Assembly (NCBI GenBank): GCA_965204745.1
Contig: OZ242010.1
Location: 3,200,001-3,264,000 of the forward strand
DNA from: Candidatus Latescibacterota bacterium
GTDB lineage: Bacteria; Latescibacterota; UBA2968
Length of the DNA: 64,000 nt
Direction of reading: 5' to 3'
Part shown: piece by piece, positions 28,480 to 32,767 of the stretch
Layout of the letters: the number at the start of each line of letters is the position of its first letter
Numbering within the stretch: the first letter of the stretch is position 1
Translations under genes and position numbers: made by a program
Notes under the pieces: generated by a model
Seen by the model: only the letters and a program-made list of their open reading frames with translations
Told to the model about the DNA's origin: nothing
The model's database searches: none

Positions 28480-28770
28480 TCAGGCCACCGCATCCAACAC
28501 GCGCTGAAATGCCTCCAGATCATCCGCTTGCACCGCTACACGATACAACCGCTTGAGCCTCGGCAAATTGTCGATGGTCGCAATGCGACCGGCGAACTGG
28601 CCGGCCACACCCGCATCAAAGCGAATCGCCAACGCTTCTCGGATGCTCTCTTGGATACCACGCCTAATGCCCTGCTCGATGCCCTGCTCGATGAACTGTT
28701 CCTCGAACTCTTCCTGGATCCGTTTCTTAAGATATTGGGTAAACAATGACTCACGCATAATCGCGTCCAT
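28480..28770 (-). CDS. Stand-alone Rpn C-terminal small protein (Rpn_S-like), unit A, 96 aa
   Basis: CAGGAGGGTTTT-ATG start; MDAIMRES...EQGI x3...LAIRF...IDNLPRLKRL. Confidence 0.7.
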   Translation of the reverse strand: MDAIMRESLFTQYLKKRIQEEFEEQFIEQGIEQGIRRGIQESIREALAIRFDAGVAGQFAGRIATIDNLPRLKRLYRVAVQADDLEAFQRVLDAVA

Positions 28771-28972
28771 AAAACCCTCCTGTGAAAGAATCTGCGCCAT
28801 CGATCCGCACGCGAATGAGGCTATCGGTCTGGCACGTTTCCACCTTGGGGAGTTCGGTGGCGAGGACTTCTTCAACTTCAATTTCGACATCCTCGCGTCC
28901 GAGTGCCAAGCGGATGAGGTCTTGCGGGTAGAGGTGAATCAACTGCTTGGGAATCGTATCGTATTCTGCCAT
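28751..28972 (-). pseudogene. Truncated Rpn N-terminus (internal deletion and frameshift), unit A
   Basis: First ~59 codons match the full-length copies, then the sequence jumps to the internal-RBS region (net 437-bp loss). Confidence 0.75.
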
Positions 28973-28998
28973 GGGGCACCTCCTGACAGGGAATCGCG

Positions 28999-29265
28999 TT
29001 AGGCTTCCGCATCCAACACGCGCTGAAAGGCCGCCAGATCATCCGCTTGCACCGCTGCACGATGCAACCGCTTGAGCCTCGGCAAATCGTCGATAGCCGC
29101 AATGCGCGCGGTGAACTGACCGGCAACGACCACATCAAAGCGAATCGCCAACGCTTCTCGGATGCTCTCTTGGATGCCCTGCTTGATTCCCTGCTCAATG
29201 CCGCGCTCAATGCCGCGTTCCTCGAGGTACTGGATAAACGATGACTCACGCATAATCGCGTCCAT
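28999..29265 (-). CDS. Stand-alone Rpn C-terminal small protein (Rpn_S-like), unit B, 88 aa
   Basis: Same internal RBS and [26 protein letters not shown] x4. Confidence 0.7.
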   Translation of the reverse strand: MDAIMRESSFIQYLEERGIERGIEQGIKQGIQESIREALAIRFDVVVAGQFTARIAAIDDLPRLKRLHRAAVQADDLAAFQRVLDAEA

Positions 29266-29467
29266 AAAACCCTCCTGTGAAAGAATCCGCGCCATCGATC
29301 CGCACGCGAATCACGCTATCGGCCAGGCGCGTTTCCACCTTGGGGAGTTCGGTGTCGAGGACTTCTTCAACTTCAATTTCGACATCCTCGCGTCCGAGTG
29401 CCAAGCGGATGAGGTCTTGCGGGTAGAGGTGAATCAACTGCTTGGGAATCGTATCGTATTCTGCCAT
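29246..29467 (-). pseudogene. Truncated Rpn N-terminus, unit B
   Basis: Same deletion junction as unit A (GATGGCG|CRGATTCTTTCACAGGAGG). Confidence 0.75.
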
Positions 29468-29493
29468 GAGACGCCTCCTGACAGGGAATCGCG

Positions 29494-30663
29494 TTAGGCT
29501 TCCGCATTCAACACGCGCTGAAAGGCCGCCAGATCATCCGCTTGCACCGCTGCACGATGCAACCGCTTGAGCCTCGGCAAATCGTCGATGGTCGCAATGC
29601 GAGCGGCGAACTGACCGGCCATCCCCACATCAAAGCGAATCTCCAACACGTCGAGGATAGCGGCAATGGTATGTTCTCTACCCCCGCGCTCAATGCCCTG
29701 CTCGATGCCCTGCTCGATGCCCTGCTCGATGCCCTGCTCGATGCCCTGCTCGATTCCCTGCTCGATGCCCTGCTCAATGCCCTGCTCGATGCCCTGCTCG
29801 ATGCCCTGCTCGATGCCCTGCTCGATGCCCTGCTCGATGCCCTGCTCGATTCCCTGCTCGATTCCCTGCTCAATGCCGCGCTCGATTCCCTGCTCAATGC
29901 CGCGCTCAATGCCCTGCTCAATGCCCTGCTCAATGCCCTGCTCAATGCCCTGCTCAAGAAACTGTTCCTTGAACTGCTCCTCGAGGTACTGGGCAAACGA
30001 TGACTCACGCATAATCGCGTCCATAAAACCCTCCTGGGAAAAAATTCGGTTGATGGTGGCAGGATCATACGCCAACCCACTCAAGACCGCCAAGCTACCC
30101 AAATAATTCGCCTTGTCTGCCTCATCCAACGAAACCGAATCGCCCTTGCGAACACACGCACGCAACCAATCTTCGGAATCCATCCCCACAGGCGGCTTCA
30201 TCAATGGCGCGAAAGGAAGCAAGCCGGCCTGGTCACCTTCAAGAATGCCGCGGCCGTCCAGCTCGCTCAACCGAAGCACCTTGTAGCGCACCAGCACGGG
30301 AAAGTCCGCATGATCTTGGCGGAAAAATCCCTTATCGCTCCGCCCGGCATTGGGACGCAGATAGATGACAAAGGAATAGACCGGCAAGTCATACTGCTCG
30401 ATGAGACAGATGATATAGGAAGCCATGCGACGAGCCATATTCGCGCTATCCGAGGTTTGAAATTCGATGTGGATCAAGGCTTCCTCGCCATCGATCCGCA
30501 CGCGAAGGAGGCTATCGACCAGGCGCGTTTCCACCTTGGGGAGTTCGGTATCGAGGATTTCTTCAACTTCAATTTCGACATCCTCGCGTCCGAGTGCCAA
30601 GCGGATGAGGTCTTGCGGGTAGAGGTGCATCAACTGTTTGGGAATCGTATCGTATTCTGCCAT
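29494..30663 (-). CDS. Rpn family recombination-promoting nuclease/putative transposase (PD-(D/E)XK), 23 EQGI-type repeats
   Basis: YD...[37 protein letters not shown]; 12-bp tandem repeat block. Confidence 0.88.
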
Positions 30664-30689
30664 GGGACGCCTCCTGACAGGGAATCGCG

Positions 30690-31643
30690 TTAGGCTTCCG
30701 CATCCAACACGCGCTGAAAGGCCGCCAGATCATCCACTTGCACCGCCGAGCGAAGCAACCGCTTGAGCCTCGGCAAATCGTCGATAGCCGCAATGTGACC
30801 GGCGAACTGACCGGCAACGGCCGGATTAAAGCGAATCTCCAACACGTCGAGGATGTCTTCAACCGCTCGTTCTCTGACTCCCTGCTCAATGCCCTGCTCA
30901 ATGCCCTGCTCAATGCCCTGCTCAATGCCCTGCTCAAGAAACTGTTCCTTGAATTGTTCCTTGAGGTATTGGGCAAACGATGACTCACGCATAATCGCGT
31001 CCATAAAACCCTCCTGGGAAAAAATTCGGTTGATGGTGGCAGGATCATACGCCAACCCACTCAAGACCGCCAAGCTGCCCAAATAATTCGCCTTGTCTGC
31101 CTGATCCAACGAAACCGAATCGCCCTTGCGAACACACGCACGCAACCAATCTTCGGAATCCATCCCCACAGGCGGCTTCATCAAGGGCGCGAAAGGAAGC
31201 AAGCCGGCCTGGTCGCCTTCAAGAATGCCGCGCCCGTCCAGCTCGCTCAACCGAATCACCTTGTAGCGCACCAGCACGGGGAAGTCCGCATGATCTTGGC
31301 GGAAAAATCCCTTATCGCTCCGCCCGGCATTGGGACGCAGATAGATGACAAAGGAATAGACCGGCAAGTCATACTGCTCGATGAGACGGATGATATAGGA
31401 AGCCATGCGACGAGCCATATTCGCGCTATCCGAGGTTTGAAATTCGATGTGGATCAAGGCTTCCTCGCCATCGATCCGCACGCGAATAAGGCTATCGACC
31501 AGGCGCGTTTCCACCTTGGGGAGTTCGGTATCGAGGATTTCTTCAACTTCAATTTCGACATCCTCGCGTCCGAGTGCCAAGCGGATGAGGTCTTGCGGGT
31601 AGAGGTGCATCAACTGCTTGGGAATCGTATCGTATTCTGCCAT
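30690..31643 (-). CDS. Rpn family nuclease, 5 EQGI-type repeats
   Basis: Near-identical N-terminal domain; different C-terminus ([17 protein letters not shown]). Confidence 0.88.
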   Translation of the reverse strand: MAEYDTIPKQLMHLYPQDLIRLALGREDVEIEVEEILDTELPKVETRLVDSLIRVRIDGEEALIHIEFQTSDSANMARRMASYIIRLIEQYDLPVYSFVIYLRPNAGRSDKGFFRQDHADFPVLVRYKVIRLSELDGRGILEGDQAGLLPFAPLMKPPVGMDSEDWLRACVRKGDSVSLDQADKANYLGSLAVLSGLAYDPATINRIFSQEGFMDAIMRESSFAQYLKEQFKEQFLEQGIEQGIEQGIEQGIEQGVRERAVEDILDVLEIRFNPAVAGQFAGHIAAIDDLPRLKRLLRSAVQVDDLAAFQRVLDAEA

Positions 31644-31669
31644 GAGACGCCTCCTGACAGGGAATCGCG

Positions 31670-32767
31670 TTAGGCTTCCGCATCCAACACGCGCTGAAAG
31701 GCCGCCAGATCATCCGCTTGCACCGCTGCACGATGCAACCGCTTGAGCCTTGGCAAATCGTCGATGGTCGCAATGCGAGCGGCGAACTGACCGGCAACGA
31801 CCACATCAAAGCGAATCTCCAACGCTTCTCGGATGCTCTCTCGAATGCCTCGTTCAATGCCCTGCTCGATTCCCTGCTCGATTCCGCGCTCGATTCCCTG
31901 CTCGATTCCCTGCTCGATTCCCTGCTCGATTCCCTGCTCGATTCCCTGCTCGATTCCCTGCTCGATTCCCTGCTCGATTCCCTGCTCGATTCCCTGCTCA
32001 ATGCCGCGCTCGATTCCCTGCTCAATGCCCTGCTCAATGCCCTGCTCAATGCCCTGCTCAAGAAACTGTTCCTTGAACTGCTCCTCGAGGTACTGGGCAA
32101 ACGATGACTCACGCATAATCGCGTCCATAAAACCCTCCTGGGAAAAAATTCGGTTGATGGTGGCAGGATCATAAGCCAACCCACTCAAGACCGCCAAGCT
32201 ACCCAAATAATTCGCCTTGTCTGCCTCATCCAACGAAACCGAATCGCCCTTGCGAACACACGCACGCAACCAATCTTCGGAACCCATCCCCACAGGCGGC
32301 TTCATCAACGGCGCGAAAGGAAGCAAGCCGGCCTGGTCGCCTTCAAGAATGCCGCGCCCGTCCAGCTCGCTCAACCGAATCACCTTGTAGCGCACCAGCA
32401 CGGGGAAGTCCGCATGATCTTGGCGGAAAAATCCCTTATCGCTCCGCCCGGCATTGGGACGCAGATAGATGACAAAGGAATAGACCGGCAAGTCATACTG
32501 CTCGATGAGGCGGATGATATAGGAAGCCATGCGACGAGCCATATTCGCGCTATCCGAGGTTTGAAATTCGATGTGGATCAAGGCTTCCTCGCCATCGATC
32601 CGCACGCGAAGGAGGCTATCGACCAGGCGCGTTTCCACCTTGGGGAGTTCGGTATCGAGGATTTCTTCAACTTCAATTTCGACCTCCTCGCGTCCGAGTG
32701 CCAAGCGGATGAGGTCTTGCGGGTAGAGGTGCATCAACTGCTTGGGAATCGTATCGTATTCTGCCAT
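31670..32767 (-). CDS. Rpn family nuclease, 18 EQGI-type repeats
   Basis: As above; first unit of the array. Confidence 0.88.
   Translation of the reverse strand: MAEYDTIPKQLMHLYPQDLIRLALGREEVEIEVEEILDTELPKVETRLVDSLLRVRIDGEEALIHIEFQTSDSANMARRMASYIIRLIEQYDLPVYSFVIYLRPNAGRSDKGFFRQDHADFPVLVRYKVIRLSELDGRGILEGDQAGLLPFAPLMKPPVGMGSEDWLRACVRKGDSVSLDEADKANYLGSLAVLSGLAYDPATINRIFSQEGFMDAIMRESSFAQYLEEQFKEQFLEQGIEQGIEQGIEQGIERGIEQGIEQGIEQGIEQGIEQGIEQGIEQGIEQGIEQGIERGIEQGIEQGIERGIRESIREALEIRFDVVVAGQFAARIATIDDLPRLKRLHRAAVQADDLAAFQRVLDAEA

Follow-up and report, generated by a model that had tools for sequence, protein, structure and literature searches.

The window analysed here is a stretch of 64,000 nucleotides (nt) from the genome of a Candidatus Latescibacterota bacterium (assembly GCA_965204745.1, contig OZ242010.1, positions 3,200,001 to 3,264,000 of the forward strand). 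Its minus strand carries, at 28480-32767, five head-to-tail gene units (U1 to U5) of a family that resembles the Rpn (YhgA-like) nucleases. U1 to U3 are complete open reading frames (ORFs), and U4 and U5 are short. Every unit contains an internal Shine-Dalgarno (SD) sequence with an in-frame ATG, from which a C-terminal ORF begins, and a tract of 12-nt repeats, after which three types of C-terminal tail (A, B and C) can be distinguished. The features of the array, in window coordinates and with protein lengths in amino acids (aa), are as follows.

32818..32846, minus strand: promoter-like site upstream of U1 (TTGACA, 17 nt, GATTAT; 10/12 consensus matches)
31670..32767, minus strand: U1, full-length Rpn-like gene (365 aa, tail type A, internal ORF of 152 aa)
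32126..32140, minus strand: internal SD and ATG of U1 (CAGGAGGGTTTT ATG)
31844..32059, minus strand: U1 tract of 12-nt repeats (four-residue, GIEQ-type; 18 units)
31644..31669, minus strand: 26-bp spacer between U1 and U2 (pattern search)
30690..31643, minus strand: U2, full-length gene (317 aa, tail type B; internal ORF of 104 aa, ATG at 31004)
30876-30935, minus strand: U2 repeat tract (5 units)
30664..30689, minus strand: 26-bp spacer between U2 and U3 (pattern search)
29494..30663, minus strand: U3, full-length gene (389 aa, tail type C; internal ORF of 176 aa, ATG at 30024)
29692-29955, minus strand: U3 repeat tract (22 units)
29468..29493, minus strand: 26-bp spacer between U3 and U4 (pattern search)
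28999-29467, minus strand: U4, whole unit (ORF list)
29246..29467, minus strand: U4 stub ORF (73 aa: nuclease-domain residues 1-59 and 14 out-of-frame residues)
28999..29265, minus strand: U4 stand-alone C-terminal ORF (88 aa; ATG at 29265, SD at 29266-29277; tail type A)
29173-29220, minus strand: U4 repeat tract (4 units)
28973..28998, minus strand: 26-bp spacer between U4 and U5 (pattern search)
28480-28972, minus strand: U5, whole unit (ORF list)
28751..28972, minus strand: U5 stub ORF (73 aa; junction as in U4, between 28795 and 28794)
28480..28770, minus strand: U5 stand-alone C-terminal ORF (96 aa; ATG at 28770; tail type A)
28654-28689, minus strand: U5 repeat tract (3 units)
28399..28459, minus strand: terminator-like hairpin with a T run (-45.9 kcal/mol, z -4.87, 0/200 shuffles as good)

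An earlier, sequence-only reading of this stretch had described the five units as joined by a near-identical 26-bp spacer, each with an internal SD and in-frame ATG, and the last two as sharing a net 437-bp frameshifting deletion that removes the HIEFQ region. This anatomy is confirmed. The spacer pattern occurs four times without a single mismatch (0 occurrences in 100 shuffles), and CAGGAGGGTTTT ATG is found at 32128, 31004, 30024, 29265 and 28770. The internal ORFs of U1 to U5 are 152, 104, 176, 88 and 96 aa long, which agrees with the 88 to 176 aa given for the internal products. When the five units are aligned with MAFFT, one 437-nt gap (columns 179-615) is common to U4 and U5; it takes out codons 60-205 (HIEFQ and the remaining nuclease domain) and shifts the frame. 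The stub ORFs that remain begin at the gene's own start and overlap the internal ATG by 20 nt, with the stop 17 nt past that ATG. The deletion junction of U4 lies between 29290 and 29289, and its stub retains the nuclease-domain residues D5 and D50 and is without E67 and Q69. A programmed frameshift that would join the stub to the C-terminal ORF was rejected, as the C-terminal ORF is in the +1 frame and the stub frame has no canonical slippery heptamer.

Because the deletion junction is common to both units, we conclude that there was one deletion and that the deleted unit was duplicated later, as the sequence-only reading had supposed. The C termini of U4 and U5 have diverged since: the tails are identical at 150/168 nt and the stubs at 171/177 nt, which corresponds to a synonymous divergence (dS) of 0.21 in the tails and 0.025 in the stubs. 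The U4 tail is closest to that of U1 (162/168 nt), while the U5 tail is closest to that of a distant paralog at 3498941 in genome coordinates (153/168 nt), and in both units the 12 nt ahead of the SD are of a type found in other paralogs and not in U1 to U3. Since the two tails are closest to different paralogs and the 12 nt before the SD are unlike those of U1 to U3, the divergence of U4 and U5 appears to be largely mosaic, acquired by conversion or recombination. The claim that the two short units have "diversified" is therefore correct as to the result, and it has to be amended as to the route, which was mostly mosaic exchange and not point mutation.

A second array in the same genome (4306776-4309971, plus strand), located 1.08 Mb away, consists of three full-length paralogs with the identical 26-bp spacer at both of its two junctions. 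Its tail types and C-terminal ORF lengths are A with 116 aa, C with 144 aa and A with 148 aa, and the two arrays probably share an origin.

The structure of the spacers can be understood by comparison with the dispersed paralogs, which have in common about 90 nt of 5' flank (with a promoter-like site and SD) and about 80 nt of 3' flank (with a hairpin and T run). The promoter-like site is kept in 14/14 aligned upstream flanks and the hairpin in 8/8 aligned downstream flanks. Each spacer of the array is made up of the first 11 nt of the 3' flank and the last 15 nt of the 5' untranslated region (UTR), SD included. This fusion has eliminated the promoters and terminators that would otherwise lie between units, and within the four spacers neither a promoter nor a terminator is found. 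Based on the presence of one promoter-like site and one terminator hairpin for the whole array, we think that it is probably transcribed as a single operon. U1 to U3 also have a weaker promoter-like site (TTGGCG, 18 nt, TATGAT) about 40 nt upstream of the internal ATG, and this site falls inside the segment that is deleted in U4 and U5. All of these promoter-like sites are consensus matches, which are not proof of function.

The internal start is a feature of the whole family. The genome is assembled as one 5.48-Mb contig, which contains 24 full-length paralogs (N-terminal domains down to ~62% identical to that of U2), one copy without residues 1-46, and two stubs. There are 29 copies of the C-terminal domain, 4 of which stand alone, and all 29 bear CAGGAGGGT(T/C)TT ATG. 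Among the 24 full-length paralogs, synonymous variation in the N-terminal part reaches its minimum in the 7-codon window QEGFMDA (0.0, compared with a mean of 0.17). The internal SD and ATG motif is also present in loci from 11 other genomes of the genus. Beyond the genus, Poribacteria homologs (~44% identical) have TCGGAGGAAACC ATG at the aligned position, and a Gemmatales homolog has AAGGAG, 8 nt and ATG at the aligned Met, in both cases in a different amino-acid context. The minimum of synonymous variation, together with the recurrence of the motif across phyla in other residue contexts, provides good comparative evidence that the internal ribosome-binding site is under selection, and we infer that a small protein is read from the internal ATG.

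The family is large. A word-index search scored 7996 candidates and gave 1811 proteins at E ≤ 0.001, phmmer found 3086 cluster representatives at the same limit (577 at E ≤ 1e-10), and a search of genome contigs for related loci found 9. The named homologs come from uncultured metagenome-assembled genomes labelled Latescibacteria, Gemmatimonadetes/Gemmatimonadota and Poribacteria, and parts of the window are present in sequencing runs labelled sponge metagenome; among the runs listed, none is an RNA run.

An AlphaFold2 model of U2, made on an alignment of 43 diverse full-length family members, has a predicted local distance difference test score (pLDDT) of 93.7. Residues 1-135 of this model resemble PD-(D/E)XK nucleases when compared with VIA-align: the best match is NucS (2vld; Z 9.5, root-mean-square deviation 2.9, 102 aligned residues), followed by VC1899 (Z 8.3) and Can2 (Z 7.8), and type IIS enzymes and McrC are matched as well. 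Foldseek places similar proteins at the top of its list, but with weak scores (E ≥ 0.016). When the family was aligned to E. coli RpnA with hhalign, RpnA residues D11, D63, E82, Q84 and R94 paired with D5, D50, E67, Q69 and R79 of the family. D5, D50 and E67 are invariant columns among the 43 sequences, and Q69 and R79 are conserved in at least 90%. Mutation of these five residues in RpnA has been reported to abolish or alter its activity (Kingston et al. 2017, PMC5350276). The Rpn family model TIGR01784 matches 25/43 family members below its threshold at E ≤ 0.01 (best 5.3e-7), and it matches the N-terminal (model positions 19-90) and C-terminal (202-257) parts in the correct order; in a scan of the organism's own genome it gave 12 matches, 0 of them above the cut-off. 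Based on the predicted fold, the pairing of residues with RpnA and the sub-threshold TIGR01784 matches, we accept the Rpn-like identity that had been proposed, and we treat the family as a remote relative that would work like Rpn and that lies outside PF04754 and TIGR01784 as these are thresholded. Matches to FliH, Yae1_N and B12-binding_2 sit on the E/Q/G-rich repeat and were rejected as compositional, and a search of PDB sequences with the family profile gave armadillo-protein noise from the repeats (E ≥ 0.031), which was likewise set aside.

The small C-terminal region consists of a repeat and a tail. The repeat unit is of the type (E/Q/K/R)(Q/R)G(I/V), that is, GIEQ-like, and is present in 18, 5, 22, 4 and 3 copies in U1 to U5. 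The tract lies inside a predicted long helix (residues 222-271 in U2 and 2-42 in the U4 ORF), and the AlphaFold2 model of the U4 ORF (pLDDT 84.8) has this long helix followed by four short helices. Across the genome, the C-terminal ORFs are between 75 and 176 aa long, and their lengths mostly differ by steps of 4. By tail type and length, the array reads A with 152 aa, B with 104, C with 176, A with 88 and A with 96. When tail types are placed on a tree of the N-terminal domains of the 24 paralogs, 12 changes are needed, where the minimum would be 2 and the mean for shuffled labels is 11.7 (138/200 shuffles are as low). A count this close to the shuffled mean indicates that tails reassort freely relative to nuclease domains. 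In line with this count, eight copies whose N-terminal domains are 97-100% identical to that of U2 span all three tail types.

These features can be compared with what has been described for E. coli. Zhong et al. (2023, PMC10400941) reported that Rpn genes encode RpnS antitoxins from internal starts, so the sequence-only reading was right to treat the neutralisation of Rpn/YhgA-like toxins by internal-start C-terminal proteins as established. According to the same paper, the number of four-residue repeats varies between strains and decides which RpnS blocks which RpnL, and one extra repeat abolishes neutralisation in E. coli. It also describes stand-alone downstream copies (ypaA/rpnESs and rpnCSs, some annotated DUF4351), of which YpaA/RpnESs is a synthesised protein in E. 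coli, and cases in which an rpn N-terminal domain is fused to the rpnSs region downstream (PMC10400941).

Given these parallels, the reading we favour, with moderate confidence, is that the array consists of divergent Rpn-like (YhgA-like) toxin-antitoxin genes and that U4 and U5 are stand-alone cassettes of the RpnSs kind. U1 to U3 would each give a full-length PD-(D/E)XK DNA endonuclease, the presumed toxin and equivalent of RpnL, and also, from the in-frame SD and ATG, a small C-terminal helical protein equivalent to RpnS. Binding of the small protein to its matching region in the long one would keep the latter inactive, and the variable-length (GIEQ)n helix and the three tail types would set the specificity of pairing. 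U4 and U5 would derive from one unit that lost codons 60-205 in the single 437-nt deletion and was then duplicated, so that production of the nuclease was lost while the ribosome-binding site and the small ORF were retained. Since they keep the ribosome-binding site and small ORF and have lost the nuclease, U4 and U5 would correspond to the stand-alone RpnSs genes of E. coli such as ypaA. The separate parts of this reading are not equally secure. That the family functions like RpnL/RpnS we regard as likely, whereas on the question of whether U4 and U5 make functional small proteins we lean only slightly toward the affirmative. Toxicity, neutralisation and any anti-phage role of the array proteins are inferred.

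The behaviour of stand-alone C-terminal ORFs, in this genome and in others, bears directly on the status of U4 and U5. All four stand-alone C-terminal ORFs of this genome are intact. Compared with the three nearest full-length copies, the ratio of non-synonymous to synonymous substitution rates (dN/dS) is 0.16 for the orphan at 732615, 0.20 for the one at 3865577, 0.40 for U5 and 0.83 for U4; the value for the family is 0.36. The older orphans (732615 and 3865577) thus combine a dN/dS of 0.16-0.20 with a dS of 0.5-0.6. The stubs of U4 and U5 differ by 1 synonymous and 5 non-synonymous changes and look to be under relaxed constraint.

The orphan at 732615 is solitary (732615-732947, minus strand; L075:1616-1948). 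It encodes 111 aa and has a promoter-like site of its own (TTGACA, 17 nt, TATTAT) directly before the conserved SD, with a run of 21 C ~120 nt downstream. A synteny search of 20 genus genomes found no contiguous ortholog of it. In a relative with a closed genome (G016), a full-length family member lies next to the ortholog of the gene that neighbours this orphan, and for this reason the solitary orphan may be the remnant of a full-length gene that was once there. The other older orphan, of 79 aa, belongs to a locus at 3865577-3866694 (minus strand; L076), where it follows a full-length but short paralog of 288 aa that has no GIEQ repeats. It starts 2 nt past its parent's stop, precisely at the SD, and public data contain a nearly identical protein of the same length (P0239).

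In relatives, we found 19 truncated units in 15 of 19 loci, with at least ten different breakpoints, in a sample that is biased because the loci were picked for short open frames around C-tail matches. In all 19 truncated units the reading frame that begins at the conserved ATG is open, and a GGAGG-type SD is present in 18. The breakpoints include N39, N96, N105, N116, N149, N152, N154, N163, N169 and N181, in addition to three different internal deletions. G016 has 62 matches to the N-terminal domain, of which 44 cover the whole domain (2 with internal stops), 1 runs from residue 29 and 17 are partial, and in none of the 62 does a catalytic domain lack a downstream C-terminal part. C-tail matches outnumber N-domain matches in 16/21 genus genomes (sums of 327 and 277, obtained with different E limits and counting matches, not copy numbers). 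In public data, 1286 proteins of 43-244 aa match the stand-alone profile, and among 8 sequences from this search, 5 start with MDAIM(R/S)(E/D)S and 1 starts with MDLIRES.

Two further kinds of product were seen in the course of these comparisons. G016:C1:810009-810777, P0225 and P0209 are in-frame fusions of a few N-terminal residues with the C-terminal region, in which the nuclease core is skipped, and such fusions are a third route to nuclease-less products. At L066, L067 and L068 (in G002, G032 and G014), a stand-alone C-terminal ORF has the usual tail and EKYR repeats after a hydrophobic start, without the MDAIMRES head.

A number of results weigh against the interpretation of U4 and U5 as RpnSs-like cassettes. 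The dN/dS of U4 comes from 6 synonymous and 16 non-synonymous changes and is indistinguishable from neutral. The contrast between stub and C-terminal ORF is not significant when U4 is set against U5 (Fisher p = 0.36); the pooled contrast for U5 gives p = 0.03, but every change enters it three times. The older orphans may owe their low dN/dS to the time when they were part of full-length genes, and the excess of truncations that keep the C-terminal frame may also be expected if catalytic-only remnants are lethal. The repeat numbers are a particular difficulty. Those of U4 and U5 (4 and 3) equal none of those of U1 to U3 (18, 5 and 22), and only one orphan, U5, has a full-length paralog of equal C-terminal ORF length and tail type (the 96-aa type A copy at 2182193), which is too few cases to support cognate pairing. 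Arrays in G016 behave similarly, in that the downstream tails are identical or near-identical to that of the parent while the repeat numbers always differ (144 in the parent versus 112 and 120 downstream, 84 versus 132 and 112, 104 versus 112, 96 versus 92 and 104, and 128 versus 100). If the E. coli rule applies, this mismatch means that such units would not neutralise the adjacent toxin. The mismatch fits fast slippage, cross-protection of other paralogs, or a role as recombination cassettes.

The assignment to Rpn-like proteins likewise has evidence on the other side. None of the curated family thresholds is reached by the array proteins: Pfam gives zero matches for U1 to U3 or for the U4 and U5 ORFs, and the TIGR01784 scores of U1 to U3 (24.4, 29.7 and 18.4 bits) are all under the cut-off of 52.1. 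PF04754 weakly matches just 2/43 family members and PF12784 1/43. PF14261 (DUF4351) has 0 matches genome-wide at E ≤ 0.1, and it is carried by 0/120 short homologs among the matches listed. The hhalign comparison with RpnA that gave the residue pairing has a probability of just 19.7% (E 0.0012). Fold searches with the U4 model (Foldseek and VIA-align) found only generic helical bundles (best Z 6.5), and RpnAS (7TH0, a three-helix bundle with a long first helix) is not among these matches. Finally, the array is flanked by genes for giant repeat proteins and an IS701-family transposase and not by recognisable defence genes.

Taking both sides together, the proposal that this is an accumulating bank of orphan antitoxins rather than decay is plausible. 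The recurrent truncations that keep the internal start and the low dN/dS of the older orphans speak for it, and the near-neutral U4 and the mismatched repeat numbers speak against it.

One possible alternative is that U4 and U5 are simply decay, that is, a dead copy that was duplicated by the unequal crossing-over that built the array and that persists because it is harmless, with SD, ATG and ORF still intact through youth and gene conversion. We judge this to be unlikely, although it is the most serious of the alternatives. It would account for the near-neutral dN/dS of the U4 C-terminal ORF (0.83) and for stub values near 1 or above, and for repeat numbers that equal no neighbour's. The loss of the internal promoter-like site with the deleted segment points the same way, and the family has other defective members (some with internal stops or frameshifts, others that are odd in-frame fusions); mosaic tails moreover indicate that conversion is active. 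Decay does not explain why truncations in relatives, with at least ten breakpoints, have an intact C-terminal frame and start, why a solitary orphan has its own promoter-like site and SD, or why the older orphans have a dN/dS of 0.16-0.20 at a dS of 0.5-0.6. It is also at odds with the E. coli precedent, since YpaA/RpnESs is synthesised as a protein (PMC10400941).

It is also conceivable, though rather doubtful, that the orphans serve mainly as donor cassettes, with the 12-nt repeat as a hot spot at which C-terminal modules are swapped between nuclease genes and specificity is reset, in the manner of the silent cassettes of antigenic variation. The free reassortment of tails on the N-domain tree (12 changes, shuffled mean 11.7) and the presence of all three tails among the eight copies that resemble U2 would be expected in this case. 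So would the mosaic structure of U4, whose junction-proximal part is as in other paralogs and whose tail matches U1 at 162/168 nt, as well as the G016 arrays, in which tails are (near-)identical between parent and downstream units while all the repeat numbers differ. The fusions of rpn N-terminal domains with rpnSs regions noted by Zhong et al. (PMC10400941) are consistent with such exchange. On the other hand, full-length paralogs can swap tails without orphans, plain slippage can change repeat numbers, no conversion event with an orphan as donor has been shown, and a silent donor needs neither a conserved SD nor an ATG.

A broader version of this idea, which we regard as speculative, is a combinatorial specificity system in which some two dozen nuclease genes per genome would share three types of tail and a (GIEQ)n helix that is hypermutable, and in which U4 and U5 would act as expressed or silent donors or acceptors when modules are exchanged at the repeat tract. 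If this were true, recombination, and not point mutation, would allow the cell to re-key its toxin-antitoxin pairs or to evade mimics encoded by phages.

That the units are copies of a mobile element, with the protein a "putative transposase" and the array the product of repeated insertion, is very improbable. This idea draws on an annotation tradition of "transposase" (one short homolog is named "predicted transposase YdaD"), on the common flanks of ~90 nt 5' and ~80 nt 3' of the dispersed copies, and on the IS701 transposase gene that adjoins the array. The common flanks, however, are a promoter and 5' UTR and a terminator hairpin and not inverted repeats. The head-to-tail fusions of 3' flank to 5' UTR are clean and identical (4/4 spacers here and 2/2 in the second array) and therefore fit tandem duplication, and Zhong et al. 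likewise attribute rpn arrays to tandem duplication, having found neither terminal repeats nor target duplications around rpn genes (PMC10400941).

The least credible alternative is that the array, or the number of its units, results from misassembly of a metagenomic genome rich in repeats. In its favour, long stretches of the units are 79-99% identical and contain up to 264 nt of 12-nt repeats, and no unit is spanned by public short-read contigs (those of four public runs over 28300-33000 are ≤ 200 nt and bridge no unit, and the deletion junction is covered by one 58-nt piece with < 31 nt per side, which is uninformative either way). Against it, the genome is a single 5.48-Mb contig, the units differ from one another in substitutions, tail type and repeat number, the spacer recurs in the second array at a distance of 1.08 Mb, and closed genomes of relatives hold similar arrays.

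The array is bordered in the window by the following genes.

33188-40777, minus strand: giant internally repetitive ORF (2529 aa), flanking the array
27220-28248, minus strand: IS701-family transposase gene (NF049921, E 3.4e-116, 388 bits against a cut-off of 250)
20773-26526, plus strand: giant internally repetitive ORF (1917 aa), flanking the array

The IS701-family gene sits ~150 nt past the terminator of the array, and the element may have shaped the 3' end of the locus. At 33103-33725, four tandem-repeat copies with a period of 129 nt (236-nt overlapping copies, 61-100% identical) overlap the 3' end of the 2529-aa ORF. PADLOC found no defence system, and its one weak match, to a "putative invertase" model, was driven by repeats.

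The idea of an orphan antitoxin is not new and is already in print for E. coli, since both stand-alone RpnSs genes and rpn arrays are described by Zhong et al. (2023). Among the literature matches listed for RpnS/RpnL internal antitoxins, only that paper and its commentary are relevant, and no paper among the matches listed ties Rpn or DUF4351 to sponge, Latescibacteria or Poribacteria. The array does not change the field's picture of RpnL/RpnS systems. This analysis contributes evidence from sequence comparison for the internal start, a description of the operon and the finding that modules reassort. It extends the gene-within-a-gene design of RpnL/RpnS to a large family that is annotated "hypothetical", and it gives support, independent of E. 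coli, for the internal start as a selected feature. New observations are the number of family copies (24 full copies in this genome and ~45 in a relative), the repeated independent origin of truncated copies that keep the C-terminal frame, and the free reassortment of tails among nuclease domains. With 24 to ~45 paralogs per genome, three tail types and many independent truncations, the family is a natural data set for RpnS-RpnL specificity and for the role of stand-alone copies, both of which are left open in the portion of Zhong et al. available to us (PMC10400941).

Among the closest known systems are the cyanobacterial DUF2887/DUF4351 (PF11103 and PF14261) and Transposase_31 proteins, which are language-model look-alikes (score 0.96-0.97) and a lead only. 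Some of the nearest named language-model clusters carry PF14261 (10-97% of members), PF11103 (99%) or PF04754 (29%), whereas the window proteins give no hidden Markov model match to those models.

The likeness to RpnL/RpnS of E. coli RpnA-E (PMC10400941, PMC5350276) includes an N-terminal PD-(D/E)XK nuclease whose conserved residues align with the mutated residues of RpnA, an in-frame internal SD and ATG ahead of a small C-terminal helical protein, a variable-number four-residue repeat (one hydrophobic residue, the rest charged or glycine) in the first long helix of the small protein, and tandem arrays formed by direct duplication. In contrast with RpnA-E, the array family is below the thresholds of PF04754, PF12784, PF14261 and TIGR01784 and is known from sequence alone. 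The repeat tract starts 24-28 residues after the internal Met in 4/5 units, compared with 8-20 in E. coli (U4, at 16, is in this range). A gene can hold as many as 22 repeat units, tails of three types reassort, and the genome has 24 full copies where K-12 has 5.

With YpaA/RpnESs and RpnCSs, U4 and U5 have in common that an extra copy of the small ORF lies downstream of a full-length gene and comes from a local duplicate (PMC10400941). They differ in that they arose by internal deletion and keep the gene start with its SD and a stub of 73 aa that extends past the internal ATG, in that they stand two in series behind three full genes, and in that their repeat numbers are unlike those of all their neighbours. 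The closest analogue of YpaA/RpnESs in this genome is instead the orphan at 3865577, which begins 2 nt past the stop of its parent.

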